From a virus (lineage: Duplodnaviria > Caudoviricetes), in IMG/VR virus record IMGVR_UViG_3300025098_005131: a DNA stretch of 64,000 nt, one strand, 5' to 3'. Position numbers and translations under genes: made by a program. Shown one piece after another: positions 22,552 to 52,354 of this stretch. Numbering within the stretch: position 1 is the first letter of the stretch; each line of letters starts with the position of its first letter. The notes under the pieces are model-generated. The model saw only the letters and a program-made list of their open reading frames with translations. It ran no database searches and was not told the DNA's origin.

Positions 22552-23613
22552 TCAAATAAAGTCTTCTATGCTAAGAGGAAAATATCCTAGACCTTTTTCT
22601 AAATATCCTTTATCTACTATAACATTTAACTCTTTTATGTAATTACTACTTACGTCAAAAATAATTGCATCATGCAAAACATAAATTGGTCTACATAAGT
22701 TTTTGTCAATTGTGTTAGACAATTCTGAAAAACATTTTAAAGATATATCTACTGCAGTTGATTGTATGTAGTTATTTACTATTATGTTTTCTTTTATTTC
22801 TTTAATATTATGCAAAGGTCTTCCGAAATAGTTTCTTCTAAAAGAATTATTCTTTTTACTTTCAGCAATATTTAAAAGATTTGGAATATTAAAATAACTT
22901 TTTAACATATTAAATACTTCTTCAGACCTAGCATGCGTTAAGTCTGCTAAATTATTACTTTTTGCTCCGTAGAGAATAGAAATAACTGCTCTTTTAATAA
23001 CTGATCTGTCTACGTTAAACGATACCTTATCTCTAAAGTATTCGTATATATCTTCATTGTTGCTTTTATCAAGAAGGTGCAATGCAAGACGAGGCTCTAG
23101 ATTGCAAAAGTCGACTGATACTATTTTACCATTTAAAAATGAAGATTTTAATATGTTTCTACACCTTTTAGGTAAGGTTAATATTCTTGGGCCTTCTTTT
23201 ACAGTTAATCTTCCTGTTACTGTATTGTTTGCATACTCTATTTTACTTGCAAAACTATTTGTAGGCTTAAAAGATTTAATTGACGACTTTACTGTTTCAT
23301 TACTTTCTATCTCAAGAAAAGCTTTGTAAGCTAAAATATCGATTTTGGACTCTACGAAACTATTAAGAAAATCTTCATATAAATCATACCTTTTCAAGAA
23401 GCTAAAGTCTTTATCTAAATCGCTTAGTCTATTTTTAATTAAATCAATATCGTCGTAAAAATCTTCTAAAAAGTGATCAGGTAAAATAGACTGCCAATCT
23501 AAACTTTTTATTTCTTTCTTAAGAAATTTTAGATTTAAACTGTAGAGTCTTGGTAAGTCTAAATTATAAATCTTTGCAAAATTAATTGTTTTATTTATAT
23601 CTTTTATGTTCAT
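22552..23613 (-). CDS. Minimal family-A DNA polymerase domain (no exonuclease domains)
   Basis: TVTGRL, motif A VDFCNLEPR, motif B RSVIKRAVISILYG, NYFGR, NNYIQSTAVD, motif C VLHDAII. Confidence 0.88.
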   Translation of the reverse strand: MNIKDINKTINFAKIYNLDLPRLYSLNLKFLKKEIKSLDWQSILPDHFLEDFYDDIDLIKNRLSDLDKDFSFLKRYDLYEDFLNSFVESKIDILAYKAFLEIESNETVKSSIKSFKPTNSFASKIEYANNTVTGRLTVKEGPRILTLPKRCRNILKSSFLNGKIVSVDFCNLEPRLALHLLDKSNNEDIYEYFRDKVSFNVDRSVIKRAVISILYGAKSNNLADLTHARSEEVFNMLKSYFNIPNLLNIAESKKNNSFRRNYFGRPLHNIKEIKENIIVNNYIQSTAVDISLKCFSELSNTIDKNLCRPIYVLHDAIIFDVSSNYIKELNVIVDKGYLEKGLGYFPLSIEDFI

Positions 23614-35923: not shown

Positions 35924-36145
35924 CTAAAAAGACTTTTTAAACATGTTATTTGCTCTTTTGCTTTGTTGGGGTAAAGGATTATTGTTTTGCTGAGACTGTT
36001 TTTCTAAGTCTGTCTTAAGTTTTCTTATAAACCATATTCTTTTCCAAATAGGTAATTTATATGCGTCTGCATAAGAAAAACTTAAATGTTGCATTAAGAC
36101 ATATATTTGTTCTAAAACAATGTCTTTATTTTCAGGCGTCAGGCC
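35924..36145 (-). CDS. Tail chaperone C-terminal extension (gp51/GT-like), probably expressed by frameshift
   Basis: GLTPENKDIVLEQIYVLMQHLSFSYADAYKLPIWKRIWFI; no credible independent start. Lies in the +1 frame of the upstream gene at UUU UUU UGG. Confidence 0.7.
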   Translation of the reverse strand, partial: GLTPENKDIVLEQIYVLMQHLSFSYADAYKLPIWKRIWFIRKLKTDLEKQSQQNNNPLPQQSKRANNMFKKSF

Positions 36146-36974
36146 AAAAAAATGTAGGTCCGATTGGCAACTCAACCTCACTTTCTTCGAAGCAGTGGGT
36201 GCATTCCATAGTTGCTTTCATATCAACACCAGGCTCGTGGTTATCCAAAAATCTTCTAAGCGCCAAAGAATCTCTTGCAGGCATGTTTTGAACAAAAAGT
36301 TTAATCTTGTTTTTATCTTTAATGTTTTCAATTTGTAGAATAGATCTATTTAAGCGATCAGTCACGCTATTGTCTGTATTTAAACCGCTCTTTTTCTTTC
36401 GATCATTTGTAATCATCATTTCTTTTTCGTCATGACCAGTTAAAAACTTAACTTTAACATTCTTTTTCGTTACAGGTAAGACAACATTAAAAACGTTTTC
36501 ACCTAAAACATCTGGCTCTACTTGCAATCTTTTAATCTTTAATTCAGACAAATTAAAAGTTGACTTATTTGACTTACTACAAGCAGGACAATTTATGTCA
36601 AGCTCATAATCAGCACCGTATCCTGTAATTCTTAGCGCGACTAATAAAGCGTTTCTGTCACCTGATATTAGATCGTCGGGGTCAATTGACTTGTCGACTA
36701 AACAGCTTTTGATTAGTTTTGAAATCACTGTTCCGTTCTTAATATAAGCTCTAGAAGTAAGAATATCTTCTTCCTTAGCTGTCATAGGTTTAATATCTAA
36801 AGTTTCAGTATCATAAATACCTTTATCTTCAGAGTATATAACACCTCTAGAAGGAAGTGGAACAGATTCAATAGCTAGTTCAAAGCCAAAGTCATCTAAC
36901 ATTACATTATTTTTTTTAATTGGGCTGCTGTCTGCAATTTCTGCAGCGTCTAGCGGCTTATCAAGATTATTCAT
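36132..36974 (-). CDS. Tail/baseplate assembly chaperone (T4 gp26-like)
   Basis: LPSRG, KPMTAKEEDIL, GDRNALLVALRITGYG, CPAC, CTHC, LPIGPTFFWP. Confidence 0.82.
   Translation of the reverse strand: MNNLDKPLDAAEIADSSPIKKNNVMLDDFGFELAIESVPLPSRGVIYSEDKGIYDTETLDIKPMTAKEEDILTSRAYIKNGTVISKLIKSCLVDKSIDPDDLISGDRNALLVALRITGYGADYELDINCPACSKSNKSTFNLSELKIKRLQVEPDVLGENVFNVVLPVTKKNVKVKFLTGHDEKEMMITNDRKKKSGLNTDNSVTDRLNRSILQIENIKDKNKIKLFVQNMPARDSLALRRFLDNHEPGVDMKATMECTHCFEESEVELPIGPTFFWPDA
36144..36155 (-). other. Putative programmed +1 (or -2) ribosomal frameshift site ACA UUU UUU UGG
   Basis: A U7 run joins FFWPDA* (frame 0) to FF-GLTPE (+1 frame) immediately upstream of the tape measure gene. Confidence 0.65.
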
Positions 36975-36986
36975 TAAGTACTCCTG

Positions 36987-39900
36987 CTATACAGATTCTA
37001 TTATTATATTATTATCTTCTTCAAAATTGTTAACAAAGTTTAGTAAATTATTTGTGCTTATTAAATTAAATAAATCACTACTTTGTGAACCTTTAAAGTT
37101 AATACCTATCTCTCCGCTAAACTCATTTCTAAACTTTTGTTGTCTAGCTCTTTCTGAATTTAATTTTACAGTATTAACATAATAATCATTTATTATTTCT
37201 CTATCAACGTAGCTTAACATAAATTCATCTAAACTTAAAAATAAATTAACATCTACTCTATTATCATTACTATCTATAGTATTAGGAGAGAATAACATAG
37301 GCGAGCCATTTATTAAAGGAGCTGTGAATAATATATTTCTAAGATTTCTAGTTATATCATGATAAATTCTAATATTATGAAAACTTCTAAATACAGATCT
37401 ATTATTTGTACTTAAAGTATTAGAAGAAAGAGGTTTTACAAATCTATTTTGACTCATTAGACCTATAGGATTAATACTACAATCAAAGCTTTTTGTCTGC
37501 TTAAGTAAACTATCAAAATTATTACAATTAAACTTAAATTGCATGTTTAAAGTTGAACTTACTGAAAGTGTGTCATCAGTATTATCATAGTTTACTGTTG
37601 CTATAGGTTGAGCTAATTGTGACTTTGAGAGTGACTTAAGATAAACAGTGCTAGGAGGAATTTCAACATTAAACTCATTTGAAACTACAGCCTCACAATA
37701 ATTGTACAAAGCTAGACTATATTTTGAGTTTATAGACATTAATTTAAAATTATTAATTGTCTCGTTTATATTACTAATATCATTTAGATCATCTTTGACT
37801 GTTTCATCAAAGTTTAGTAAATCACTAGGTCTATTATTAAAATCTAAAAAGTAATAAGATTTGTCTCTTTGCTTTGAACCTGTAACAATTTCAGGAACAT
37901 CAAATATATAATTAAAGCTTCTTTTTGTTTCTGCTAAGTCTACAATTTCTTTAATCAAACTTTGAGAAGATATTCCTGGCATGCAAAACAAATCAACTCT
38001 ACAATCTGTCTCTTCTGTTGCAATTTTATATGCAGTTCTATAAATCTCTGTGGTTTGCATTTCTGCATTTGGATCTGCAGCATTATTTGTTTCTCTTGCC
38101 ACAGAAAATCCTGACATGTCTTTTTTATAATAATCTAAAATATTAACGCCATCGAAGCCACCATAACTAAAAAAGTCAAAAGAAAGAAACAAATGATTAT
38201 CAGAATAATTTTCGTCGTTTGAATAAAGAAGCTTGTTTATATCCACATATTTAAAATTATTTTTTTCATCTAACGATGTAATTTGAGATATATCTTTACC
38301 ATCTCTTCTGTAAAATGAATAGTCCCATCTTTTTGAAACGTTTATATCATCTGCGGCGTTATATAAAATCTTTTCTAGATGAAAGAAGTTATATTGGGTA
38401 TTTTGATCTAGTTCTTCTTTCCATACACTATATTCGTCTCTATAACTACTAAAATATTTTGAATATTGTGATGCTTGATCAAAACTATTTGTTACGTTAT
38501 CGTTGTATAATTCCATTATAAAATTATAATTTTCACCATCTACTAAAACGTCTCTGACTTTAGTTAACTCTGTCTGATCAAATAGCACGCCCCACGATGC
38601 ATCTTCTTTAAAAATAGGTTTTATACCTTCAAATCTTAAAATCTGTCTATTTCCAGCAAACCTCATTGGGTTTTGAATAATCGGTGTGCTGTTAGTATTT
38701 TTACGAAGATTGTTTGTGTTTATAATAGGATAGTTTTTAAAGCCGGAAGGCATCAAAGTTGTTTGGATTACTTTATCTTCAACGTCATTTGTTACTTCTA
38801 CATAAATATGATTATTTGTTTTTTTATAGTTGCCAGCAGTTACTATTTTTCCTAAATCAAAATCATAATACTCATGCTCAGTGCCTATAACCTTGCAAAT
38901 ATAATCATCGCTTTCTGGGTTTAAGTTTAAATCAATATACTTCGCAATAGAATTATATCTGTTTTGAGTTTTAAGACAATAAAAAACTTCAACATCAAAC
39001 TTAGAATATAACTTATTAGGATCTATATTGTTATAATTTCCTAATCTTTTAGGCGTTATTCTAAATCTATATTTATTTCCTTCTTCACCGTCTGAATAAG
39101 TATGAAATCTAAATAATTCAACACACTCTTTCCATATACTTTCTTTACTAGTGTCTGAAGACTGTATTGTATTGACTGGTTGCGATACTACCCAAGGCGT
39201 CTTTGCTTTTCTAAAAACATCTTTAAAACTTTGATAGTTAATAGCATCTTGGACAGCTGAGTTTTGAAATGTTATAAATGATGCTGTTGAAGCTTTTTTT
39301 GTTTTCTCATTAGGATAATCAAATAAATCAATATCTCTAAACGAGCAATAATTTAAGTGGCCTCTGTTTAAATTAAAATAACTGCTTGTATTTAACTTGT
39401 CTTCATACATACTAAATCTTTTATAAGAATCAGTTTTAAGAGGCGTTTCAATAATACTTTTGCTCGAGTCACTCAATCCTTTAATATAAATGTAAGGATA
39501 AGATATGTCAGATTCGATGATTGCACTAGGATTGTCAGACTGGTAAGTTCCTAGTTCTTGCCTTTTTTGACTTAAATCTAGCTCATCTAGCAAATCTTTT
39601 TGTAGATCTAACTTTATTCCTTGTGCTGCAAATATAACATTTGTTATAATTCCTATTGTGTCATCTGTTTGTCCTATTTGATCAAAGTAGTTTTCAAAAG
39701 AAGAAGTATATACAACTTCTTGATCGTCGTGTCCATCTGGCCCAACAAAAGATCTTTCAGAAACATATTTGCCTTCAAAATAGCATAAACCGTTAATTAA
39801 ATCATTACTGCTTTTAACGGCATATTCATTAGGGTCAAAAAAAATTTGATTTCCGACTGTAAATCCTGCGTGATCGTATTCACCTGCTTGATTTTTTTCA

Positions 39901-40214
39901 AAACTACCGTTGCCTACGCCTAACACTCGAGTATAACTAAGCTGACTACCGTTATTTTCTAGCCAGACTTTTGAAGAAATTGGGCTTGCATGTTGTTTTT
40001 GAAAATTAAAGTCACCAAAGATATTTTCCCAAGTGTTGAGTATACTAGAATCTTGCGCAAAAGAGACGACTTGTTGTGGAACAAAAGCAGGGCCTCTCAT
40101 TGCTGTGCCGACAAGACTTAGCGTTTCGTCAGTTAAAGAAATAGTTTCTTCTTCTAGAAATATTCTTTGCGTAACTATGTCGCCTGTAATTTGTGCATTA
40201 TTTCTGTTTGACAT
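36987..40214 (-). CDS. Tail sheath paralogue 3 (divergent)
   Basis: GTAMRGPAFVP, YTRVLGVG, PWVVSQP, LNLNPESDDYI, GGFDG, LFCMPGI; the gp18 C-terminus is degenerate. Confidence 0.8.
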   Translation of the reverse strand: MSNRNNAQITGDIVTQRIFLEEETISLTDETLSLVGTAMRGPAFVPQQVVSFAQDSSILNTWENIFGDFNFQKQHASPISSKVWLENNGSQLSYTRVLGVGNGSFEKNQAGEYDHAGFTVGNQIFFDPNEYAVKSSNDLINGLCYFEGKYVSERSFVGPDGHDDQEVVYTSSFENYFDQIGQTDDTIGIITNVIFAAQGIKLDLQKDLLDELDLSQKRQELGTYQSDNPSAIIESDISYPYIYIKGLSDSSKSIIETPLKTDSYKRFSMYEDKLNTSSYFNLNRGHLNYCSFRDIDLFDYPNEKTKKASTASFITFQNSAVQDAINYQSFKDVFRKAKTPWVVSQPVNTIQSSDTSKESIWKECVELFRFHTYSDGEEGNKYRFRITPKRLGNYNNIDPNKLYSKFDVEVFYCLKTQNRYNSIAKYIDLNLNPESDDYICKVIGTEHEYYDFDLGKIVTAGNYKKTNNHIYVEVTNDVEDKVIQTTLMPSGFKNYPIINTNNLRKNTNSTPIIQNPMRFAGNRQILRFEGIKPIFKEDASWGVLFDQTELTKVRDVLVDGENYNFIMELYNDNVTNSFDQASQYSKYFSSYRDEYSVWKEELDQNTQYNFFHLEKILYNAADDINVSKRWDYSFYRRDGKDISQITSLDEKNNFKYVDINKLLYSNDENYSDNHLFLSFDFFSYGGFDGVNILDYYKKDMSGFSVARETNNAADPNAEMQTTEIYRTAYKIATEETDCRVDLFCMPGISSQSLIKEIVDLAETKRSFNYIFDVPEIVTGSKQRDKSYYFLDFNNRPSDLLNFDETVKDDLNDISNINETINNFKLMSINSKYSLALYNYCEAVVSNEFNVEIPPSTVYLKSLSKSQLAQPIATVNYDNTDDTLSVSSTLNMQFKFNCNNFDSLLKQTKSFDCSINPIGLMSQNRFVKPLSSNTLSTNNRSVFRSFHNIRIYHDITRNLRNILFTAPLINGSPMLFSPNTIDSNDNRVDVNLFLSLDEFMLSYVDREIINDYYVNTVKLNSERARQQKFRNEFSGEIGINFKGSQSSDLFNLISTNNLLNFVNNFEEDNNIIIESV

Positions 40215-40224
40215 TCAAGTCTCC

Positions 40225-40266
40225 TGCATAAATAGTTTTTTTTTTGTGCTTATAACTATTTATGCA
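40225..40266 (-). promoter_or_regulatory. 13-bp perfect hairpin abutting the RBS of sheath paralogue 3
   Basis: TGCATAAATAGTT (40225-40237) / AACTATTTATGCA (40254-40266). On the minus strand the stem ends in the A of AGGAG, and its 5' arm contains ATAAATA. Confidence 0.6.
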
Positions 40267-40292
40267 AAAAGTAAGTTGACAGAATCAATTAA

Positions 40293-40781
40293 TTAATATT
40301 GTAGAACGCAGTTATCGAACCTGATGCTTAAAGAAATATCTGTTGGATCGTCACCGTCGTAACTAAGGTCACCGTAAGCAGCACTTGTTAAAAATGCGCC
40401 TTTGATGTCCCAAAGCTCTACAACAGTCCCAACTGGGTCAAGCATCTTAAGCTGAATATCGCGCTTATAAAAGTCTGCATATCCTGCACGACCACTAACT
40501 GATTCGTAGTGTGTTCTAATCCATTCCATTACTTGCTGAGCTCCGCTTGGTGCAATAGGATCATGAATAGTAACAGAAAGTGAATCAAAAGTCATCTTAC
40601 CTGCGATGTATCTTTTCGCATTAATAAAGTTGATTTCAGTTTCGCCTATTTGGAATGTAGGTCTTGCAGCTGATTTAATAAGAAAAGCGTCGATGCCTTC
40701 GATTGCCAAGATCCATCGATTCTTTCTTTTTGGCTCAAACTTATTTGGAATCATTTCCGTGACTGAAAGTGTCTCTGGCAT
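40293..40781 (-). CDS. Tail tube protein (T4 gp19-like)
   Basis: FEPKRKNRW, AARP, YIAGK, QQVMEW, YKRDI, LDPVGTVVELW, SIRFDNC. Confidence 0.92.
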   Translation of the reverse strand: MPETLSVTEMIPNKFEPKRKNRWILAIEGIDAFLIKSAARPTFQIGETEINFINAKRYIAGKMTFDSLSVTIHDPIAPSGAQQVMEWIRTHYESVSGRAGYADFYKRDIQLKMLDPVGTVVELWDIKGAFLTSAAYGDLSYDGDDPTDISLSIRFDNCVLQY

Positions 40782-40807
40782 TTTATTTTCTCCTAATAAT
40801 TCTTATG

Positions 40808-40815
40808 TATTTATA
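40808..40815 (-). promoter_or_regulatory. T4-type late promoter TATAAATA
   Basis: Exact consensus 27 nt upstream of the tail tube ATG. Confidence 0.6.
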
Positions 40816-40817
40816 TA

Positions 40818-43800
40818 TCAATCAATTGAGTTAGTTACAACAAAGTCAAGTGAAATAAACTCTACAGACTTAGTAGGCTGTAAGTATACCTTACCTCTTA
40901 TTGTATTGTTTTCAACATCGTTTTGTGTTGTTGTAGAAGTATCAATTTGTACTTTATATCTATCAACACCCTGTCTTGCTTGAATTTCTGCCATAATTGG
41001 CTCAACAAGCGCACTAAACTTAGCTAGAGTAGATGCTCTATTAGGCTCAAAGAGTAACGTGTTTGCAACTGCTTTAACTCTTCTTCTAACATTGATCAAT
41101 AACCTTCTAACGTTAATTCGATCTAACGCAGATTGATTCTGTAACAATGTCTTTTGTCCAAACGCATAAACTTCGCCAGGACGACCTGATGGTTCGTATA
41201 TTGGATTTATATCTTCATCATAAAGATCATCCAGAACGTCGCGATTCATCTGCACCTTTGAGTTAAGAGCATTAAGCTTTCCTCTACTAAGACCTGCAGG
41301 AGCAAACCAAGGGTCTGCAAGGAAGTCGTTTTGACTCATAACACCTAACATACTTACAGATGGTGGAACCTCAACAGGCGTTCCATTTGAAGGTCTTCTA
41401 ATAATTACATTAGGGAAGTAAGCTGCTGCAAATGACGTATCCAAACTTCTGTTTCTAAATCTATTAATTGTATTCGCTACATTAGGTAATGATTCATCAG
41501 TTGTAGGCAAAGTATTACCCTCAGCTACTTCTTCAATGTCAACCAACAACATCGCGTCAAATCTGCTTTCGCAAGCTGTAATTGCGTAATCTGTAATTAA
41601 AGGCTCACGCATTCCTGGAACTGCCAAAAGCTGGAACTCAGTTGCACTCTTGTCACTTAATACGTCAATTGCTTTCTTATATGAATCCACTGTTACACCG
41701 GTAAATTTGGCATTATCAGTTTCATCATTAGCTTCTCTAAATGCTGCTACTGAACTCATCTTAGATTTTTCTTCATTAAAGATATCTAATCCATCAAATC
41801 CGCCTTGCATCATAAATCTAAACTTAAGATATCTAGAGTTTTTACCTACAGCATGTGTTCCAACATTTAATTGAGTTGTTAAAGAACCTGCTTCACCATC
41901 ACGTCGATACTCAGCAGTTGACCAGTCAAGCTCTCCATCAGAATCTAAATTTAGATAGATGTTATTTAAGCTAAACTTACTGTTTTGATGAGTATCTGCT
42001 GTAGAGTCTGATACTAAATTTGGCAAGAATTTTGTCCAAGATGGCATACTAGTATTTGTTCTTATTTCAGTTAACTCGTTAGGCTCGTCGTCGCGCTTAG
42101 TCTTTTTAGCAAACTTAACACCCCAAGAAAGCTTTGCATCAGCAACTTTAGAAGAACCTGATTTCTTAGCTATTGATTTAACATAAGGAACCGGTAAAAC
42201 TTGATGTCTATCATAAGAAGCATCTGACACGACCTTGCCTGCGCCATCTCCATCTGTTCCACTTTCTACTATTGCAAGTGGTGCATAGCTAAGTCCTCTA
42301 AATCCGCAGGGCATTGTTACAAATGTAATGTCTCCAGCATCAACAGACGGATCCATCTCAACTCTAATATAATCATTAGTTACATCGTAAGTTCCTTCTT
42401 CAACAAGTCTTTGTCGGGATTCTGCTGCATCAAAGTTATAATAAATGTGTTTATCACCTATTACTCTAGCAATATAATTTCTGCTATCAGGGTCTAAAGT
42501 AAGGTTTCTCCAAGATGCAATTACTTCGCCTGAAATAGGATCGCTGTCAAATCTCTCTAGTGCTAATGTAAATGTCGCATAATCACTTGCAGAGTTGCCA
42601 AGCTTTAAGTCAGATATTTGAACTCTAAATCTACTATTTGCTACTTCACCATCGTCAAGTGCATATACCTTAAATAAATCCTGATCAGTTTGCGAAATAA
42701 CCCAAGGTGACTGTGCAGTCTTAAATGATTCTCTAAAAGTTCTATAGTTTTCACTAGCCTTACTACAGAAAGCGTAATTAACATCTATTGCAGCTCCACT
42801 TGGTGCTGTAACACCATCATTACTTGGAACGGCACAAGCTTTGTCAATATCCCAATTTAGATATAGATAATGGCCTAACTTTTCAATCTTTGTAGGATCT
42901 GTGTTTAAAACCTTTGCAAAGTAATTTGGGCTCTCTGGATCAAAAGAACAAGACAAAGTATTTAATTCAGATGAATTGTTAAAACCATTTAACAATAAAC
43001 TAAATGCTTGAGTATCATCTGCTATTTCTCCTAGCTCATAACCAATTAACTTTGTATCGTCTCCTACGTCTGGAGAAGCAAAGTTTTTAAGCGCACCGCT
43101 ACTTGTAACCGCAACATTAAGGCGAGAATCAGTATCTGCTTGATTAAATGTCGTGTTTGCTAAAGCAGGAACAACGCCTTGTGGCACCATCAAGACACCT
43201 CTAACTAAAGGAGCTGCTGCACCGCCACCGCCTACAAAGTTTTCTTGCTTTTTACCAAAGTTACCAACTACAACTTCACCTTCACTATTAGAAATAGTCA
43301 CTGTGCTTGTCGCAGATAACTTATTCTTTAACTTAGCTCTTACTCCTTTTTCAGTTGAGGCTTGTTGTAAAGAAATGGTGCCGCTATCTGATACTATGTC
43401 TAGCGGTGTGACATTATCACTTTCAAACAATACCAAGTTATCTTTTAAGTTTTGAACTGATGTGGAAATTAAACAATTTTTAAGATTATAAAGCGTCTCT
43501 AATATATCAGAGCCAATCTTACAGTTTGTAACTCTTAATCCATTGTTATCACTAAACTGTGTAATTTCCGCATTGACGCCAGCGTCAGTAGCAAAATCTG
43601 CAACTTCTGATCCATACTCACCTGTCAAGTCTTGCTCGAATATAACTTTATCAAGGTCATTGCCGGGGTCAGCAATAGCAGTTATTTTTAATGGATTAGA
43701 TAAATCATTAAATCCTGCAATTAGTCGTGTAGCTCGATTAGCATCTGAATCATTAGCAACATCAAAACCAATAGTCAAAGTTGATGAAGGTACATCAAAA

Positions 43801-45824
43801 GATACATTTGCATCAGCTATGCCGAAAGCAACGTTAATAGTTGTACCTTCTAGATCTGTAAGTGCTGTTATGTTTTTGCCATCAACACTAACGTTACCTT
43901 TAAACTTAAAGCTTGCTGTTGCCTTAGTACTGTCTGTAGTATTTACCGAAGCATTTGTCACAGCACTACTTGTAGTAAACTTGATTTTTTCTTTATCTAT
44001 TTGATCAGTCTCTGCATTATTAACTGTTTGAAGTTCTAAGACATCATTGTTATTAGGTTGACCTGATAGTGATAAATCAAATGATACAGGATCAGCGTCT
44101 CTACCATTTTTCATAAACTTTACTTTGTCTTCTTCACCTTGTGTAGATACTAAATTAAAATCTTCAGTAGTTTGCTGTGTTCCATTCGTTAAGTTAGTAT
44201 CGGCATCTGATGCACATTCTATAATAAGACTATTTTCACCAACAGCACCTTTAAGCACAATATTTCCAGTGTTGTTTGTCCTTTTAATGCCTGCGTTGCC
44301 TTTATAGACACTTACAATTCTTAAACTTAATCCATTAGGAGAAATCGTAGTTTCAAATAATCCTCTATGCACTAAAGTATGATCATCTATTGATGTTCTA
44401 TCGATAGCAGACTTAAGATTTAATAATGTTTCTTTTATAGTTCCACCGCTGTATATTGTAACAGCATTTGCACTTGTAACTTCATATCGATTTGCAACAT
44501 CGTCAGCACCTGCAACGTCTGCAGCAATTGCTGTATCATCAAATTCATAAGTTACATGATTCCCGTCAATTGTAAAAGTTCCATCACCTTCATTTTTTAA
44601 CCCAAAAAACTTTATCGAAGTATCATCTTTTGGTTTGCTCACACCATCTCTAGAACTAATTGTAAACTCAGCAGCAACAGCGTTATCTAAGCCCCAGAAA
44701 AAGTCTCTTTCAGAAGAAGCTATTCCATCTTGAACTGTTATGTCTGATTCTGAGCCTCCTGAAGTTGAATTTGTTATGTTATAATCAACTGTAAAACTAT
44801 TAGAAGAAGGAAACTGTGTTGAGTGGATTGATCGTATCTCTAAAGAAGCTTGATCTAAGTCTTCTACAAGCTTAACAGTTGTGAGTGCATTGAAGCCTTG
44901 GTTGGCAGTGCTTGTAAGAACAAACTCGCCACCCACAGCGGCTTCTGCTGCGCCTAAAGTGCTGATGTTTGCAAAAAAGCCAATGTCGCCTGCATTAATA
45001 TTTACAATTTTATATGTAGCGCCAACAAAAATGCCTGCGATATCACCGCCACCATCATTTAAAGGAATTGCGTCTGCTTTTGCTATCTCTCCATCGCTAA
45101 ATCTTGTTGGAATAAAAGTTGCTGTAAGGTCGGTAAGTGCATCAATTTTTTGACTTAAGTTACGTACACTTTCAACAGATTTTGTTCCTTTTGTTGACTG
45201 GCTAGCGTTTCCAGCAGAAGCAACAAATGTTATTGTTGATTCAACGTCAACACCTACATCATCTTTATGTTTAATTTTAAACGTATCGTCAATAGTAGGA
45301 AGTGCACCGTTTTTAAGTGAATATGTCAAAACACCAGATGTCGATTCTGTTGTGACGCCTGAATCTTTTAAGTATGTGCTTTCGTTTGTATCTTTCATGA
45401 AGCAGCCTAGGAAATATGTGTCTCCATCAATTAAGCCTTCTCCGGATTCTTTAGCGGCATGTGGATTATCTTGTAGTTTATCGTCACCATCATATGATAC
45501 TTGATTACCTACAACAAAACCTGCGTCATCACCTACACCTAAAACTCTGAGATAAGTACCTGCTTGTGCTTGGCGCATCCATTCGTTAAGTGCTAGAGGT
45601 CCAAACTTATTTGAGTTGCTATCTTTGTGAACTTCTTGCATTGAGCCAAAACATTTATTAAATTGTTCCATTGTCGCAAATGTTTTAGGCACAAAAGCCG
45701 GTCCACGACGTGAAGGCCCAACAACAGCTGCAGGAACGCCAACAGGTAGTTGTTCTAAGCTACTTACGTCTGATCTATCTATTTCATTAAGTGTAACTCT
45801 TGCTGAGCCTTGTCTATTAGACAT
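40818..45824 (-). CDS. Tail sheath paralogue 2 with a ~700-aa insertion
   Basis: GPSRRGPAFVP at the N-terminus; canonical gp18 C-terminus INPIY...FGQKTL...ALDRINVRRLL...PTKSVEFISLDF. Confidence 0.92.
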   Translation of the reverse strand: MSNRQGSARVTLNEIDRSDVSSLEQLPVGVPAAVVGPSRRGPAFVPKTFATMEQFNKCFGSMQEVHKDSNSNKFGPLALNEWMRQAQAGTYLRVLGVGDDAGFVVGNQVSYDGDDKLQDNPHAAKESGEGLIDGDTYFLGCFMKDTNESTYLKDSGVTTESTSGVLTYSLKNGALPTIDDTFKIKHKDDVGVDVESTITFVASAGNASQSTKGTKSVESVRNLSQKIDALTDLTATFIPTRFSDGEIAKADAIPLNDGGGDIAGIFVGATYKIVNINAGDIGFFANISTLGAAEAAVGGEFVLTSTANQGFNALTTVKLVEDLDQASLEIRSIHSTQFPSSNSFTVDYNITNSTSGGSESDITVQDGIASSERDFFWGLDNAVAAEFTISSRDGVSKPKDDTSIKFFGLKNEGDGTFTIDGNHVTYEFDDTAIAADVAGADDVANRYEVTSANAVTIYSGGTIKETLLNLKSAIDRTSIDDHTLVHRGLFETTISPNGLSLRIVSVYKGNAGIKRTNNTGNIVLKGAVGENSLIIECASDADTNLTNGTQQTTEDFNLVSTQGEEDKVKFMKNGRDADPVSFDLSLSGQPNNNDVLELQTVNNAETDQIDKEKIKFTTSSAVTNASVNTTDSTKATASFKFKGNVSVDGKNITALTDLEGTTINVAFGIADANVSFDVPSSTLTIGFDVANDSDANRATRLIAGFNDLSNPLKITAIADPGNDLDKVIFEQDLTGEYGSEVADFATDAGVNAEITQFSDNNGLRVTNCKIGSDILETLYNLKNCLISTSVQNLKDNLVLFESDNVTPLDIVSDSGTISLQQASTEKGVRAKLKNKLSATSTVTISNSEGEVVVGNFGKKQENFVGGGGAAAPLVRGVLMVPQGVVPALANTTFNQADTDSRLNVAVTSSGALKNFASPDVGDDTKLIGYELGEIADDTQAFSLLLNGFNNSSELNTLSCSFDPESPNYFAKVLNTDPTKIEKLGHYLYLNWDIDKACAVPSNDGVTAPSGAAIDVNYAFCSKASENYRTFRESFKTAQSPWVISQTDQDLFKVYALDDGEVANSRFRVQISDLKLGNSASDYATFTLALERFDSDPISGEVIASWRNLTLDPDSRNYIARVIGDKHIYYNFDAAESRQRLVEEGTYDVTNDYIRVEMDPSVDAGDITFVTMPCGFRGLSYAPLAIVESGTDGDGAGKVVSDASYDRHQVLPVPYVKSIAKKSGSSKVADAKLSWGVKFAKKTKRDDEPNELTEIRTNTSMPSWTKFLPNLVSDSTADTHQNSKFSLNNIYLNLDSDGELDWSTAEYRRDGEAGSLTTQLNVGTHAVGKNSRYLKFRFMMQGGFDGLDIFNEEKSKMSSVAAFREANDETDNAKFTGVTVDSYKKAIDVLSDKSATEFQLLAVPGMREPLITDYAITACESRFDAMLLVDIEEVAEGNTLPTTDESLPNVANTINRFRNRSLDTSFAAAYFPNVIIRRPSNGTPVEVPPSVSMLGVMSQNDFLADPWFAPAGLSRGKLNALNSKVQMNRDVLDDLYDEDINPIYEPSGRPGEVYAFGQKTLLQNQSALDRINVRRLLINVRRRVKAVANTLLFEPNRASTLAKFSALVEPIMAEIQARQGVDRYKVQIDTSTTTQNDVENNTIRGKVYLQPTKSVEFISLDFVVTNSID

Positions 45825-45863
45825 ATTGTTAGTCTCCTATTTTTAAATCTATAAAACTATATA

Positions 45864-48800
45864 TTACGGAAATTCAACACCTGAGTTAGTAATTACAAAA
45901 TCAATTGCAATAAATTCAATAGCTCTTGTAGGCACAATAACAATTTGTCCGTTAAGTCTATTATTATCTACGTCCTGTGCTGTATTGTTTGTATCGTCCA
46001 TAATAACTCTAAAGTCTTCGATACCTTGATTAATCTGAATATTTGCAAGTTGACTGCTAGCAGAAGAAATAAATCTATTTCTAGTCTTTGAGTTGTTTTG
46101 CTCAAATAGTAAACCTTGCGCAATTAACTCTATTCTTCTCTTAATCTCTAAAACAAGTCTTCTTACGTTAACTCTATCAAGTGCAGTTCTCTTTAGCTGT
46201 GTTGTCTTCTGTCCAAATATAACAAATTGTTTATTTGGGAAGTTTGCAATTGGATTAATTCTAGACTCATACAATGTATCTCTATCTTCAGCGTTAAGTC
46301 TAACTGAAATTGAAGAAATAGATTCTAATGCACCTCTTGAAAATCCTGCTGGAGCAAACCAAGGCTGCGAAATGGAATCAGTCAAAGCTAATGCACCAAG
46401 TGCAACAATCGATGAAGGCACCAACACAGATCTTCTAGAATTAACAGCAGCTTCGTCAGAGTCACCGCTATCCAAAACTTTTACGTCCGGAAAGTAAGAT
46501 GCTACATAAGATGAATCCACTTCACGAGTATCAAAATCACCAGCTGTAAGCACAACGTCAGGCTTTGAACTCTCAGTGCCTCTTGCATCAACAAAAACTC
46601 TTTTACTATCTTTGTCATACTGCTCTAAGTCCATTAAGTAAATTGCTTTACCATACTCTTCTTCAATTCTATCCTTAACGAGATCTGTTACAAATCTATC
46701 GCGAATATTTGGTATAGCCAAGACATTATGATTAACAACGAGATCATCTGTCATTATTCTGATCGCGTTTTTATAAGAAGCAATAACATTGTTTAGGTCT
46801 TCACTACCTTGCATAACAGAACCAACGTCAGCCTTTAAAGTTCCATGTATTCCACTTTCAAATCCTTCAATAGCGCCTTTACCTTTTGGTGTGGTTGAGG
46901 TATGAACTGAAGCTGCTCTGTCTGTCATAAAGTAAGAGTCTCTATCAAAGATGTTTAACCCATCAAAACCACCACCCATCGGTGCAGTAAACTTTGCCAT
47001 AACTGAATATTTGTTAAACTTTAAAGTGTCTTCTGCTAAAAGCTTTGCTAAAGAAACTCTGTCAGCTGCATCAATATCGTCATTAGTTCCACCCATTTTA
47101 ATTAAATGTGCTGAAGCGTCATAAACGTCAGAATTAGAAACTTCTGCATTTCTTACGTAAACTGCGCTTTTAAAAACATCGTTTGTTGTCCCAGTTACTC
47201 CGTTAACAGTAGCACCTTTAAGAGCAACCTTTGCCAAAGAAAACTTATTGTTATTATGACTGTCTGATAGTGAGCCAGAAGTAATCACTGTTTGATCTAC
47301 ACCAAAAAACTTTGTATAGTTTGAAAGAAGCTCGTTAAACTCTGTGCTTTTATTTGCATTATTAATGTCTAAAACGCGTGTAGACATAAGACCCCAGTGT
47401 AGAGCAAAGTTAACACTTTCAGACGGAGATGCATCACCTAAGAAAGTTTGTTCGTAAGATTGATTTGTTCTAATGTCACCGTTTGTTACTTTAAATCTAT
47501 AAGGCAGAGGAGGCAAAATAGAATCTAAAAGTTCGTTAACTTTAGCATCACCGGCGCCCGAGTCTACTGCAAAAAGACTGTAATTGGTGTCTGAGTCTTT
47601 TGCTGTCGCATTAAAGTGCAAAGCGTCAATGCCTCTAAACCCAAAAGGAAGTGTTTTTGCTGGAACTTCGCCTTGCATAATTGCATCGCTAACAACAACT
47701 CTTACTTTCTGTGAATTGTTCTTAAACGTACCTTCTCTTACAAGTCTTCTTTCGTTTTCGCTTGCAGCATCAAAGTTAAAGTATACCTTTTGATCACCAA
47801 TTACTCTGCTTATAAAGTTGCTAGAATTAGGATCTAAAGAACACTGGTTGAATGTTTCGTAAATAATAGGTGATTCATCTGTATCTTTTAAATCTCTAAC
47901 TGTAACTGTAAACGTTCCATACTCATCAGTTGGATCTGTGCTTGCTCTTAAGTTAGATATAGATATTTTATATTTGTCGTTTGCGTAAGCACCGTCGTCC
48001 AAAGAATCGAAATGAAACAAGTCATATTCACGTGAACCAAAAGGTTGCGAAATAAACATTGGTGAAGTTGCTGATTTAAATCTTGACTCAAAGTTTTCAA
48101 AAGCGCCTGCAAAGCCATCTGTTTTTTCTTGTAAAAGAGAATATGGCGAGTTTGCAGCAGGTTCTGCAACTTCTGAATCAATAGGGAAATGTGCGTAGAG
48201 AAAATGCTTTTTACTTTCTAAAGCAAAAGGATCTGTATTAAGAACCTTTGATATATACTTGTCGCTACCTGGATCTAAAGAAAAAACGTAGTCTAAACTA
48301 TCTCCCGCTTGGCCTGCATCATCTTTAAATCTAATGTAAAAAAGTTTATTTTGATTGACATGATAGCTGTTTATTTGCTCGGTAAAAGATCCGCTAGCTT
48401 CTTGCAAAGGAATGATAGAGTAGTCTTTGTGAGTAATAATCATTGCTCTAACTATATTGACAAGATTATCGTTACCATTTGGAGCATTTGGGCCACCATC
48501 ATCGTCCATATTTGTAGTAAAAGAGTCGTTATCGTTTATAGATCCTAAACCAAGCCATTCTCCAGCGCTAACCGTGTGTGTAGATGCAAGAAAATAAGAA
48601 GCACCAATTAGCCTTCCGGCTGTACCGCCACCAACAGCATCAGTTCTCGGTGTAAATTTAAATCCAGCGTTTTCTTGGCTTTTGAGTCCGCTGCCTAAAA
48701 CTCTGCAGAAAGTTAGTGCAGAGTTAGTTGTGCTATTTCTAAAATATTCTGCTGCTGCATGACCGCCGAGTCTATTTGGGTCAGGTTCACCAAAAATTCT

Positions 48801-48965
48801 AATATATTCTTCTCTAGATGTAACTGTAGTGGGTACGAATGCAGGACCTCTTTTTGACGTTGATATAACTCCAACAGGCGTCGCTTTTGTTCTGCTTATT
48901 GGTCTGCTTATTATCTCAATTTCTCGTTCAAAAAAGCCTGGAGACTTAAATGTCTGCTCTGCCAT
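45864..48965 (-). CDS. Tail sheath paralogue 1 (T4 gp18-like)
   Basis: MAEQTFKSPGFFEREI, PWFAPAGFSRG, RINPIA, FGQKT, ALDRVNVRRL, PTRAIEFIAIDF. Confidence 0.94.
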   Translation of the reverse strand: MAEQTFKSPGFFEREIEIISRPISRTKATPVGVISTSKRGPAFVPTTVTSREEYIRIFGEPDPNRLGGHAAAEYFRNSTTNSALTFCRVLGSGLKSQENAGFKFTPRTDAVGGGTAGRLIGASYFLASTHTVSAGEWLGLGSINDNDSFTTNMDDDGGPNAPNGNDNLVNIVRAMIITHKDYSIIPLQEASGSFTEQINSYHVNQNKLFYIRFKDDAGQAGDSLDYVFSLDPGSDKYISKVLNTDPFALESKKHFLYAHFPIDSEVAEPAANSPYSLLQEKTDGFAGAFENFESRFKSATSPMFISQPFGSREYDLFHFDSLDDGAYANDKYKISISNLRASTDPTDEYGTFTVTVRDLKDTDESPIIYETFNQCSLDPNSSNFISRVIGDQKVYFNFDAASENERRLVREGTFKNNSQKVRVVVSDAIMQGEVPAKTLPFGFRGIDALHFNATAKDSDTNYSLFAVDSGAGDAKVNELLDSILPPLPYRFKVTNGDIRTNQSYEQTFLGDASPSESVNFALHWGLMSTRVLDINNANKSTEFNELLSNYTKFFGVDQTVITSGSLSDSHNNNKFSLAKVALKGATVNGVTGTTNDVFKSAVYVRNAEVSNSDVYDASAHLIKMGGTNDDIDAADRVSLAKLLAEDTLKFNKYSVMAKFTAPMGGGFDGLNIFDRDSYFMTDRAASVHTSTTPKGKGAIEGFESGIHGTLKADVGSVMQGSEDLNNVIASYKNAIRIMTDDLVVNHNVLAIPNIRDRFVTDLVKDRIEEEYGKAIYLMDLEQYDKDSKRVFVDARGTESSKPDVVLTAGDFDTREVDSSYVASYFPDVKVLDSGDSDEAAVNSRRSVLVPSSIVALGALALTDSISQPWFAPAGFSRGALESISSISVRLNAEDRDTLYESRINPIANFPNKQFVIFGQKTTQLKRTALDRVNVRRLVLEIKRRIELIAQGLLFEQNNSKTRNRFISSASSQLANIQINQGIEDFRVIMDDTNNTAQDVDNNRLNGQIVIVPTRAIEFIAIDFVITNSGVEFP

Positions 48966-49020: not shown

Positions 49021-50247
49021 CTAATTATCATTATTTGATATATTAAAAATTAATTCAGCATATTTTTCGTCATAGACTGTTTCACCTGAAGTATTTTGAA
49101 CTGCTCTTACTTTAACGATATTTCCATCTTGATCTTTTACGTTTACTTTTGTGTGCTTTCTTTCGTTTGTATATTTTTCTGCAACAGCATCATATTTTTG
49201 CAAATTGCCGGGTTCTGCAACAAAAGCATGTGATTTGTCATATTCTAAAAGATTTTGTAAATTATCAATATCAGTTACACCTGTAATTTGTGAAATAAAA
49301 CCGTCATTACTATTTACGTCTTCAAGCAACATTCGAGCGTCTGCAGTATTTGCAGGAATTCCTTTGATTTTTGGATCAATATCTTTAGCACTTTGTAAAA
49401 CTTCAAAAGAAAACTTTGGTGCACTTATAAGAGACTTAATTCCTACTTTTCCGCCTCGTATATTAGGAGCAAGAATGTAACCTGTTGTAGATATTGTCAT
49501 CGAGTATTTGATGTACCTGTGCGCGTCTGTATAATCTGCGTAGTTTGTATCTTGCGAAAAAGAACTTTCAACAAAAGCAGGAAACCAATATCCTTTCTGG
49601 CTTTCAACTCTAAATTGTTGACCAGGATTAAGCGTGTAAGCGCTCATTATCGTTTCCAATAGTTTGTTCATTTGTTGCGTAAAAGATGACCACACAGTAA
49701 TCTCGTATGTCGTACCAAAGTATTTTACAGGTGGTATTTCTATGGTTTCATAGATATTATTTTCAAGATCAGGTTTTAAACTAAAGTTTGGATTTTTTAG
49801 ATCGCTTTCTTTAGATGTATAAGAAAGATTTTGAATGCCTTCAAAGTTATTTAGCTGTCGCCATGCGGCATTATTGCTAGCAACTCTTCGTGCAACAACT
49901 TCAGGAAACATTTGATTATTTGCAATTCCTTTCGAAGGATTATTTTCAATTGCACCTCTTGAAATAGAAATAAGCGGAAGAATTAATGCGCCTCTTTTAT
50001 CAGTAATAGGCATTTTTCTTCTTAAGAGCGCAAATCTCTCACCGGTTGCAAAAACAACTGGGACTTTTTTTGTTTCTCCCTCAAGATCGTAGTAAAGAGG
50101 TATTTGTTTATCGAATAAAGAAAAGACAGCGAAGTCAAGATCTTCTAAACCACATGACGGGATAACATAGTCATATGACTTTTCGTCTTCATAGCCTGAT
50201 ATTACTTTGTTATCTTGTTCTGTATTGCTATCAAATCTTGTTGCCAT
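49021..50247 (-). CDS. Tail terminator / sheath stabiliser (T4 gp15-like)
   Basis: LEDLDFAV, VPVVFATGER, LILPLISI, YEITVWSSFTQQMNKLLE; position after the neck genes. Confidence 0.75.
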   Translation of the reverse strand: MATRFDSNTEQDNKVISGYEDEKSYDYVIPSCGLEDLDFAVFSLFDKQIPLYYDLEGETKKVPVVFATGERFALLRRKMPITDKRGALILPLISISRGAIENNPSKGIANNQMFPEVVARRVASNNAAWRQLNNFEGIQNLSYTSKESDLKNPNFSLKPDLENNIYETIEIPPVKYFGTTYEITVWSSFTQQMNKLLETIMSAYTLNPGQQFRVESQKGYWFPAFVESSFSQDTNYADYTDAHRYIKYSMTISTTGYILAPNIRGGKVGIKSLISAPKFSFEVLQSAKDIDPKIKGIPANTADARMLLEDVNSNDGFISQITGVTDIDNLQNLLEYDKSHAFVAEPGNLQKYDAVAEKYTNERKHTKVNVKDQDGNIVKVRAVQNTSGETVYDEKYAELIFNISNNDN

Positions 50248-50903
50248 TATTCATCTCCGTAAAAAGAAGACCCGATTCCATTAATACTCTTTGTAGTGCC
50301 GTCAGGTGCTACTTTTTTAGGACCGCTAATTGGTTCTTCTAAAACACCGTCTTCTCTTAGCTGGCGTTTATCAGTTTCTGTTGTTCCTCTTTGCTGTTTA
50401 AATGTAGTCTGAATTGCATCTTTTTCTGTGTAACCTTCATATGTAGGTCCAATTGCATTCTTGAATATATGTTCAGCACGTGCCTGCTTAGCTGTAAGTT
50501 TTATTGATGCAACGCGTTCAATTTGACCGTAAACTAGCTTATCGTATATGAGTGATGTTATTTCAAAGAAAAATTCACCATAAGATAAATAGTCACCTTG
50601 TCTAATGTTAAGATTTCTGTCGATAATATCTCTATCATGTATGTAAACTGTAATTGTTTTTATTTGTTCATGTCCAAACTGTGTAGTCTTAACTTCAGAC
50701 GGTTGCCATTCCACAAGACATTCTATTTCAACAGGAGGATTAAATATTTTATAGACAGACTCTTCGTAAACGTCATGTATGTCACTCAAATCTTCTCTAA
50801 TTGTATAGTAATATATTTTTTGCCCTGCTACGTCTTTAATAAGCTCTTTGGTAATATCAGCAAAAAAATCAACTTCTTTTTGTCCTATAAATAAACGCGC
50901 CAT
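50247..50903 (-). CDS. Neck / head-closure protein (T4 gp14-like)
   Basis: KELIKDVAGQKIYYY, DVYEES, PPVEI, GDYLSYGEFFFEI. Confidence 0.78.
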   Translation of the reverse strand: MARLFIGQKEVDFFADITKELIKDVAGQKIYYYTIREDLSDIHDVYEESVYKIFNPPVEIECLVEWQPSEVKTTQFGHEQIKTITVYIHDRDIIDRNLNIRQGDYLSYGEFFFEITSLIYDKLVYGQIERVASIKLTAKQARAEHIFKNAIGPTYEGYTEKDAIQTTFKQQRGTTETDKRQLREDGVLEEPISGPKKVAPDGTTKSINGIGSSFYGDE

Positions 50904-50908
50904 CTTTA

Positions 50909-52354
50909 TTATCCTATTATAATTGCTTTGCCATTAGGCACAGGTACTCGCTTTAATATATTAAGCATTGTTTCGCTCTGAGCAGCATCAGCTTCTAATA
51001 ACTTCTGGTATGTTAATTTGTCAAGCTGCTCATTTAAAGAGTCTATAAGCTTTTGCTGATCATCTCTACCTTGGCTTAGCAAATCAGAGCCATTTAACTG
51101 GACATCGCTACCAGGAATAGGCACAGAACTAAACTTTGATCTAATAAGTCCTAATGTTTCTTTGCATAGTGCAAGTGTATACTGTCTTATCCATTGTCTA
51201 GACATTTGATTAATTTTACTATAAGTAATATTTCCAAAAGGAACGTTTGACAAGTTTGAAACGCCGTCTATAGATTCGTCCCCATACGGCAGATTAGGCG
51301 AAAAAGGATCTGTAGGGAAAGAAAATTTAATGAAAAGATTCATAGGATTATCTTGTGTAGGTCGAGGATAAATTCTTAAATTTTGCCCTTGTAACTTATA
51401 TGAGTAATTACTTCTTCTAACTCTATTTGATATGTCTAATTGACCTGCTCTTAATAAATCTTCAAAAACAGGCAAAACATAAAATACAGTTTCTGGTGTA
51501 AAAGATTCAAATGCAAATTGATTATTTAAGTAGTTAATTGCTGACGTTGTATCAAAAAATCGATATGCAGCTTGAGGAGAAAAGTGAAATATCTCATTTA
51601 CTTTAATCTTTGTCATTGAAGCAGTCGGCAAAACTTTTTCTTTATAGACTGGATTAAATAAAGATTTTTGTGCTGGATCGTTATTGTACTTATCTAAGTT
51701 TAAGACAACATCGTCTGTAGGTATTTGGAGTTCTTTATAGATGTTATAATCTTGTTTGTTGTGTTGTAACTCTATAAATCCGTCCAAAGAATTGTTTACA
51801 CCACCAACAAAAGCTTCGCTAGCATAAGGTTCAGCTCTTCTTAATAAATATTCTAAAGTCTCTCTAGGAAATCTTTGCTCTTGTCCATTAGGACCTACTT
51901 TTTTATCTTCAATAGGCACTGCTGGAGGATTATTATCTTTAGCAACAATTTCACCATTGTCGTATTGACCTTCAACATTTTGTGCTAAAAACCGAGGATC
52001 GTTTACGTTTTGTATTAACAAAGGTTGCGTATTAGCATCCAATTCATCACCGTAATAATAATTTCCAAGCGCATTTTTTTTATATGTTTCAGTTGGTCCA
52101 GTCTTGAGACCAAGTATGTTAGACATATAAGATTCAGCCTGATGAGCATTTATTTTTTTTGAAAACTCAAATGTAGCCTCTTCAAAGTTTGCCCATATTT
52201 GCTTATTTGTCAACTCTACCGACATTACATCATCACCTAATCGACGTTTAACGTATAAAACAATTTTATCTGCATCTTCTTGAAAGTGGCTATCACTATC
52301 AAATGAGCCAAAAGGCGTCGGCTGATTACTTAGCATGCTTAAAAATGAAGCCAT
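50909..52354 (-). CDS. Neck / head-tail adaptor (T4 gp13-like)
   Basis: VELTNKQI, NLRIYP, WIRQYTLALCKETLGLIRSKF...PGSDVQLNG. Confidence 0.85.
   Translation of the reverse strand: MASFLSMLSNQPTPFGSFDSDSHFQEDADKIVLYVKRRLGDDVMSVELTNKQIWANFEEATFEFSKKINAHQAESYMSNILGLKTGPTETYKKNALGNYYYGDELDANTQPLLIQNVNDPRFLAQNVEGQYDNGEIVAKDNNPPAVPIEDKKVGPNGQEQRFPRETLEYLLRRAEPYASEAFVGGVNNSLDGFIELQHNKQDYNIYKELQIPTDDVVLNLDKYNNDPAQKSLFNPVYKEKVLPTASMTKIKVNEIFHFSPQAAYRFFDTTSAINYLNNQFAFESFTPETVFYVLPVFEDLLRAGQLDISNRVRRSNYSYKLQGQNLRIYPRPTQDNPMNLFIKFSFPTDPFSPNLPYGDESIDGVSNLSNVPFGNITYSKINQMSRQWIRQYTLALCKETLGLIRSKFSSVPIPGSDVQLNGSDLLSQGRDDQQKLIDSLNEQLDKLTYQKLLEADAAQSETMLNILKRVPVPNGKAIIIG

Follow-up and report, generated by a model that had tools for sequence, protein, structure and literature searches.

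The reference for contractile tails is bacteriophage T4, which has a homopolymeric sheath. Sheaths built from several paralogous proteins are known from headless devices. In the Photorhabdus virulence cassette (PVC) a gp25-like protein, Pvc9, is followed by a single initiator ring of Pvc4 and then by alternating layers of Pvc2 and Pvc3, the latter carrying an extra surface knob (PMC12546770). The sheath of the antifeeding prophage (Afp) is likewise polymerised from more than one protein, namely Afp2, Afp3, and Afp4 (PMC12961389). Among phages, the Pseudomonas jumbo myovirus PaBG has two sheath paralogues that are 38% identical and derive from gene duplication, and both products, gp76 and gp213, are reported to have been detected in the structural proteome (2018, Virology 515:46, as cited in PMC7412058). 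In a recent account of the moraphages, large aquatic relatives of T4, the tail sheath is among the shared genes, and the passages retrieved from it make no mention of paralogues (PMC12619734); a literature phrase search for several tail-sheath proteins in phages returned only papers related to PaBG. Here we describe a tail locus within a 64,000-nucleotide stretch of DNA (IMG/VR record IMGVR_UViG_3300025098_005131, hereafter the window) belonging to an uncultured marine T4-like jumbo phage, which, together with its relatives, is known here from the genes alone. The locus encodes three sheath paralogues, designated SH1, SH2, and SH3, around one tail tube gene. With slightly better than even confidence, we propose that SH1 and SH2 are the trunk subunits of the sheath and that SH3 forms a low-copy, specialised ring.

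The elements of the locus that bear on this proposal are the following:

45864-48965, minus strand: SH1, a canonical gp18-type sheath protein of 1033 amino acids (PF04984, PF17482, phrog_23)
40818-45824, minus strand: SH2, a second gp18-type sheath protein, 1668 amino acids (PF17482, phrog_23, similarity to SH1)
43123-45407, minus strand: variable surface insertion of SH2, approximately amino acids 140-900 (length comparison across loci)
40293-40781, minus strand: tail tube gene, 162 amino acids (phrog_4542, 1.9e-27; weak match to PF06841, gp19)
40225-40266, minus strand: hairpin in the spacer between the tube gene and SH3 (13-bp perfect inverted repeat)
36987-40214, minus strand: SH3, a divergent sheath-fold paralogue with a degenerate C-terminal domain, 1075 amino acids (homology to SH2, AlphaFold)

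The pairwise homology of the three proteins is far beyond chance. SH1 and SH2 match at E 3e-100 with 31% identity over 819 columns, SH2 and SH3 at E 5e-35 by BLASTP, and SH1 and SH3 at E 4e-19. Common to all three are GPAFVP, RVLG(S/V)G, (S/T)P(M/W)xxSQ ... DG, L(D/N)PxSxx(F/Y)I, and GGFDG. SH1 scores above the Pfam cut-off for both PF04984 (31.8 bits) and PF17482 (38.2 bits) and matches phrog_23 at 1.8e-54, and SH2 scores above the cut-off for PF17482 (29.1 bits) and matches phrog_23 at 7e-42. The last 184 residues of SH1 align with residues 468-651 of T4 gp18 (E 7e-33), an alignment that includes QPWFAPAGFSRG opposite QTWMSPAGYNRG of gp18. The C-terminal motifs shared by SH1 and gp18 are W-x-x-PAG-x-x-RG, INP, G-x-KT, DR-x-NVRRL, and LFE-x-N, and the first and the last three of these are present in both SH1 and SH2. 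By these family and motif matches SH1 and SH2 are canonical gp18-type sheaths. A first-pass annotation of the window had described three sheath-family genes of 1033, 1668, and 1075 amino acids around one tube gene, a set of shared motifs, and two canonical gp18 C-termini beside a third that is degenerate. The open reading frames and pairwise homology agree with the first of these statements, every quoted motif is found in all three proteins, and the third statement is borne out by the gp18 alignment of SH1 and by the loss of motifs in SH3.

SH3 has lost the W-x-x-PAG-x-x-RG and G-x-KT motifs, and its versions of the last two motifs are degenerate (HN-I/V-RI and LFS). The protein has no Pfam or PHROG match, and a profile of the SH3 family found no PDB sequence at E<=0.01. 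Its residues 236-1039 align with residues 937-1649 of SH2 at E 5.5e-80 and a probability of 100% (hhalign). With 34 orthologues as input, AlphaFold gave a model of SH3 that has a predicted local distance difference test score (pLDDT) of 79 and a predicted template modelling score (pTM) of 0.83. All top Foldseek matches of this model are sheaths, with T4 gp18 (9mkb) at E 5e-12, and comparison with VIA gave Z 17-22 to the sheaths of KP1, the Streptomyces contractile injection system (CIS), pyocin R2, AlgoCIS, Pvc4, and phage 812. Against whole sheath chains the VIA matches span residues 9-1046 of the model, with Pvc4 (9qgl_4A) at Z 17.8. On the basis of the hhalign alignment and these model matches, SH3 is a complete sheath-fold protein with a homologous, degenerate C-terminal domain. 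The N-terminal GPAFVP/RVLGxG block is invariant in the 34 orthologues. A long basic C-terminal helix, residues 941-964, contains an invariant R949 and aligns with the DRINVRRL helix of SH2; it may be the counterpart of the tube-attachment helix of Pvc2, Pvc3, and Pvc4.

Such a protein could also have left the sheath altogether, to become part of the baseplate or of some peripheral structure, or to aid assembly without entering the finished lattice, with SH1 and SH2 alone forming the sheath. The retention of the entire core fold, of the invariant N-terminal block, and of the basic helix argues against this, as does the PVC, in which the odd paralogue Pvc4 belongs to the lattice (PMC12546770); the lost gp18 motifs and the lack of Pfam, PHROG, and PDB-sequence matches argue for it. 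The alternative also gains from the position of the SH3 gene, which stands where the hub and baseplate genes begin, from a distant group of relatives without SH3 (see below), and from the C-terminal polymerisation domain being the least conserved part of SH3. We consider it rather unlikely, while granting it appreciable weight.

Constraint on the three proteins was compared by region in the same eight genomes. Identities of the N-terminal, middle, and C-terminal parts are.73/.56/.67 for SH1,.75/.49/.75 for SH2, and.40/.38/.26 for SH3. The core of SH1 is 67-75% identical across these genomes, and the last 200 residues of SH2 are 81% identical. As read from these identities, constraint is inverted, the tube-contacting, polymerising core being best kept in SH1 and SH2 and least kept in SH3. 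Base composition also differs. In 15 loci the G+C fraction of SH3 is 0.25-0.33, compared with 0.32-0.39 for SH1 and SH2 and 0.34-0.41 for the tube gene; it is close to that of the large downstream baseplate-region genes and of the polymerase, and hints, indirectly, at lower abundance or constraint.

Fast evolution, a shifted amino-acid composition, and the lack of family matches would also be expected of a copy that is decaying or unexpressed. The SH3 family comprises about 45 full-length orthologues of 1042-1231 amino acids, with identity down to approximately 26% and about 75 invariant residues. The ratio of nonsynonymous to synonymous substitution rates (dN/dS) is 0.15-0.37 for SH3 in five pairs, 0-0.06 for the tube gene, and 0.32-0.47 for SH2 with its insertion included. 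The SH3 values indicate purifying selection, and SH3 is therefore not decaying. Conservation of its position, its ribosome-binding site, and its regulatory hairpin, together with the confident structural model, points the same way. For SH3, decay is ruled out by the intact orthologues, the invariant residues, and the dN/dS values, and the idea that any one or more of the three copies is a decaying or unexpressed duplicate is hardly credible. Members of the SH3 family, for which there is no Pfam or PHROG model, are at present annotated as hypothetical and could now be named.

The layout of the sheath operon sets one gene apart. The spacers between SH1 and SH2 and between SH2 and the tube gene are approximately 43 nucleotides long and unstructured, with median minimum free energies (MFE) of -0.9 and -0.5, respectively. 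The spacer between the tube gene and SH3 has a median length of 87 nucleotides, with an MFE of -27.8 kcal/mol and z -5.4 (44 distinct sequences), and is the only structured spacer of the operon (40215-40292 in the window; loci L002-L061). Within the window the inverted repeat of the hairpin (-19.9 kcal/mol, z -3.67) ends at the GGAG that belongs to the ribosome-binding site of SH3, and in closer relatives the 3' arm covers AGGA and reaches the ATG of SH3. The hairpin of these closer relatives has 15 pairs, seven of them with compensatory changes and 91.6% of cells paired, and its covariation is 0.306 as against 0.06-0.08 for slid controls. More distant relatives have a stem followed by a T-run after the tube gene, an arrangement that resembles a terminator. 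Since SH1, SH2, the tube gene, and SH3 all have the same AGGAG Shine-Dalgarno site, only SH3 is set apart in the expression layout.

A T4 late promoter was sought in the same region. The candidate TATAAATA upstream of the tube gene (40808-40815) was rejected, as the window contains it no more often than chance predicts (10 vs 10.06 expected). Near-matches to the late promoter occur in many spacers, and one-mismatch matches do not exceed expectation in AT-rich spacers, by a rough estimate. An ATAAATA-like element lies inside the hairpin loop in many loci; the motif is not above chance. A layout like that of T4 gene e, with a promoter within the hairpin, would be allowed by the arrangement of these sequences.

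A profile-guided, alignment-based scan of IMG/VR yielded 80 loci, with gene order taken from a BLAST map; the SH3 sequence alone, used as the locus query, had found one close locus only. SH3 is present in 60 of the IMG/VR loci, with the tube gene directly upstream in 57 and the gene for a T4 gp26-like baseplate hub protein next in 46, and 21 loci that are long enough show the complete order SH1, SH2, tube, SH3. In a complete relative of 239,550 bp (G001), which has direct terminal repeats and a CheckV completeness of 100%, the sheath homologues number exactly three, beside a single tube gene and a single gp25-like gene (PF04965). Phylogenies were built with FastTree (77 rows) and with IQ-TREE under LG+C20 PMSF (31 rows). 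Both recover an SH1 clade (support 100) and a clade of SH2 and SH3 (support 97-99), within which SH3 forms a single clade with a long stem (1.1-1.5) and with end branches approximately three times longer than those of SH1 and SH2. Neither tree settles the order among the SH2 branch of the window group, the SH2 branch of a distant group, and SH3. The split between SH1 and SH2 is older than the divergence of the window group from this distant group, which comprises 22 loci from larger genomes that have SH1 and SH2 and are without SH3. An SH3-like gene was not found elsewhere on five large contigs of the distant group, records that are 39-74% complete. The first-pass annotation had proposed a check by phylogeny and synteny and had named decaying copies as a challenge to its idea. 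Trees and gene order reveal three real paralogues, kept in dozens of related phage contigs, and the copies are found under purifying selection.

Sheath duplication has also occurred elsewhere among the relatives. In six loci of the distant group SH2 has been copied again, recently and independently, and the duplicate lies ahead of the tube gene; three of them were placed in the tree. Coordinates of such extra SH2-derived paralogues are 13194-16259 in L064, 14357-17476 in L067, 13197-16262 in L070, and 4413-7448 in L075. LR756508, an uncultured phage of 484 kb, has its own sheath pair, two genes of 824 amino acids (L001, 7479-9953 and 10968-13442), and the cultured relatives Mel-JY01 and RM378 have one sheath gene each. 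Given the duplicates in the distant group, the LR756508 pair, and the history of SH1, SH2, and SH3, the sheath was duplicated at least four times in the wider lineage.

SH2 differs among relatives mainly in the segment between GCFMKD and PVIRG. This segment is 58 amino acids long in L039 and L083, approximately 220 in several loci, approximately 500-570 in others, 695 in L026, and 761 in the window, and thus its length rises stepwise among relatives. Within the insertion hhalign finds a weak repeat (probability 79%). AlphaFold modelled the insertion poorly (pLDDT 48), and BLASTP found no similarity between it and other proteins of the window. The part of SH2 that contains the insertion has a dN/dS of 0.47. 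This variability and fast evolution could indicate that SH1 and SH2 are alternatives, one being used per particle, for instance because there are two tail types or because redundancy protects against host defences aimed at the sheath, and each does have a complete gp18-type core that would be able to polymerise alone. The two genes are, however, adjacent and separated by the short unstructured spacer; their AGGAG sites are identical, and no switch element is present. Both have been kept since before the two deep groups split, with a very conserved core, which fits non-redundant roles, and both sheath paralogues of PaBG are reported from the structural proteome (PMC7412058). The use of SH1 and SH2 as alternatives is, on this evidence, improbable.

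The mechanism that we propose begins with a sheath gene that would have been duplicated twice within the neck-tail module, all three copies being kept. The old duplication would have given rise to SH1 and SH2, in both of which the gp18-type core is under strong constraint, and the two would be expressed together with the tube gene as one unstructured block. SH1 and SH2 would be the abundant trunk subunits of a two-component sheath, arranged in alternating or segregated rings, with SH2 additionally displaying its variable surface insertion of 58-761 amino acids. SH3 would have left the SH2 lineage to evolve approximately three times faster while keeping the whole sheath fold, the N-terminal block, and the basic C-terminal helix. 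Its expression would be separated from that of the tube by the hairpin over the ribosome-binding site or, in other relatives, by a terminator. SH3 would then form a low-copy, position-specific ring, most probably inserted, like Pvc4, between a gp25-like adaptor and the lowest ring of the trunk. We infer the presence of the paralogues in the virion, their co-polymerisation, their stoichiometry, and their positions from these features of the genes.

Placement of SH3 at the baseplate end is suggested by gene order, by the separate gp25-like adaptor, and by the layout of the PVC particle. The minus-strand order from neck to baseplate is gp13, gp14, gp15, SH1, SH2, tube, SH3, and gp26-like, and the genes flanking the sheath operon are:

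50909-52354, minus strand: gp13-like neck/head-tail adaptor, 481 amino acids (phrog_211, 1.2e-10; position conserved)
50247-50903, minus strand: gene of 218 amino acids in the position of T4 gp14 (neck), assigned by order only
49021-50247, minus strand: gp15-like tail sheath stabiliser/terminator, 408 amino acids (PF16724 T4-gp15_tss, 1.2e-7; phrog_227, weak)
36132-36974, minus strand: T4 gp26-like baseplate hub gene, 280 amino acids, directly downstream of SH3 (PF12322, 9e-18; phrog_150, 1.5e-22)

The orthologue of the gp13-like gene in L003 matches PF26809 (Phage_T4_gp13), and the PF16724 match of the gp15-like gene scores 31.7 bits against a cut-off of 25. The 218-amino-acid gene has no family match in Pfam or PHROG; in every long locus its orthologue lies between the gp13-like and gp15-like genes.

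SH3 could instead be the last sheath ring at the head-proximal end, touching the gp15-like terminator and not the baseplate. The evidence for a low-copy ring is identical under both placements, and none of it fixes the end of the sheath. The neck-to-baseplate gene order, however, puts SH3 on the baseplate side, and in the PVC it is Pvc4 that lies at the baseplate end, the apical layers being plain Pvc2 (PMC12546770). A head-proximal SH3 therefore appears quite doubtful.

Several points weigh against the proposal of SH1 and SH2 as trunk subunits and SH3 as a specialised ring. A hetero-polymer cannot be told from a homo-polymer by sequence alone. SH3, with its relaxed core and its loss of gp18 motifs, could lie outside the sheath lattice altogether, and since the 22 distant-group loci build tails without SH3, it is not essential to this tail type. 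The grounds for placing SH3 at the baseplate end are gene order and analogy only. Low G+C speaks for low abundance only indirectly, and the hairpin could time the expression of SH3 and not lower its level. The first-pass annotation had offered paralogue 3 as a low-copy initiator or capping ring. Its low-copy, specialised character is consistent with the relaxed core, the low G+C in 15 loci, and the conserved hairpin or terminator, while its position in the virion is left to inference. The broader claim, that the clade as a whole has three position-specific paralogues, a co-polymerising trunk pair and a low-copy initiator ring dosed by a hairpin or terminator, arising independently of the extracellular contractile injection systems (eCIS) through recurrent sheath duplication in large T4-like phages, falls a little short of an even chance.

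If the proposal is true, a layered, position-specific sheath is not peculiar to headless devices such as PVC and Afp, having re-evolved inside true phages, and a large, globally distributed T4-like lineage has a three-component sheath. The lineage would then offer natural material on how ring identity is specified, on the tolerance of sheath subunits for surface insertions of 60-760 amino acids, and on how a rare ring protein is kept at its stoichiometry when its gene is read from a polycistronic late message.

The window also encodes a gp23 major capsid protein (PF07068, 6.5e-80), RecA/UvsX, a DnaB-type helicase, and ribonucleotide reductase. Because these genes share the window with the sheath operon, the window is phage DNA, as opposed to a tailocin. 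Among deposited phages the nearest are remote, with major capsid protein identity of <=54% (LR756508, the Flavobacterium 'immuto' phages, Microcystis Mel-JY01, and Rhodothermus RM378). The gp23-type protein has 609 amino acids (62155-63984, minus strand), and its Pfam match spans residues 300-599 only. Its tblastn matches are split in two, which gives the appearance of a large N-terminal or internal extension, and its gene has 44% G+C against a background of 30-37%.

Downstream of the gp26-like gene, between 24763 and 36181, small genes (85-94 amino acids) alternate with giants (1087, 888, then 1531 amino acids), none of which has a Pfam or PHROG match. Three such pairs of small and giant genes lie downstream of the gp26-like gene in L002, and the 1087-amino-acid gene is tandemly duplicated in several relatives (L035, L036, L040, L042, L051, and L053). 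A 353-amino-acid open reading frame at 22552-23613 (minus strand) has a partial match to family-A DNA polymerase (PF00476, positions 79-354 of 381) and, judging from this match, may be part of a split polymerase gene. RM378 also has a short annotated 'DNA polymerase' of approximately 313 amino acids. The record of L077, a 269,547-bp contig (G005), has sheath-profile matches at 96-995 and 268801-269046. SH1 of L077 thus seems to cross the contig ends, suggesting a circularly permuted genome or a circular assembly labelled as linear.

The eCIS are among the known systems closest to the locus. PVC and Afp likewise have three sheath paralogues of gp18 fold in one locus with one main tube protein. 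The PVC has two trunk-type paralogues, one of them with a surface extra (the Pvc3 knob, as compared with the SH2 insertion), and one odd or divergent paralogue, and its gp25-like Pvc9 corresponds to the gp25-like gene (PF04965) of the complete relative. There are differences as well. Unlike PVC and Afp, the window and its relatives have capsid, neck, and replication genes and belong to a true phage and not to a headless particle, and their sheath proteins are approximately 1000-1700 amino acids long as against approximately 350-470 in PVC and Afp. The layer arrangement of the PVC has been solved, whereas here only genes were read. At most the phage sheath works in the manner of an eCIS; the phage system itself is no eCIS, and because SH1, SH2, and SH3 cluster with T4-type sheaths, their duplications are independent of those in eCIS.

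PaBG offers a comparison among phages. It has two paralogues of approximately 58 kDa, in contrast to the three described here, and its sheath genes are unlikely to be adjacent, since the numbers gp76 and gp213 are far apart. Its lineage is unrelated and not T4-like, and neither a degenerate third copy nor a regulatory hairpin is described for it (PMC7412058).

T4 itself shares with the locus the gene order 13, 14, 15, sheath, tube, as well as gp15-, gp26-, and gp25-like partners (the last in the complete relative); it has one sheath gene of 659 amino acids, however, as compared with three here, each with large extra domains. The T6SS (type VI secretion system), like the sheath proposed here, is contractile and made of more than one polypeptide, but TssB and TssC each supply half of a single protomer and are not paralogues, whereas each gene here encodes a complete protomer. 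The first-pass annotation had cited T4, Mu, P2, R-pyocins, and T6SS as models with one repeating subunit, a split pair in the case of T6SS, a list that is correct but omits the eCIS (Afp and PVC) and PaBG. Its suggestion of an architecture not seen in those models was overstated, given that position-specific sheaths of several paralogues have been solved in PVC and Afp and that a two-component sheath has been reported in PaBG. What the genes point to is more specific: the first three-paralogue sheath that the present search could find among T4-like phages, together with an SH3 family that lacks annotation and has a conserved, putatively regulatory RNA upstream.

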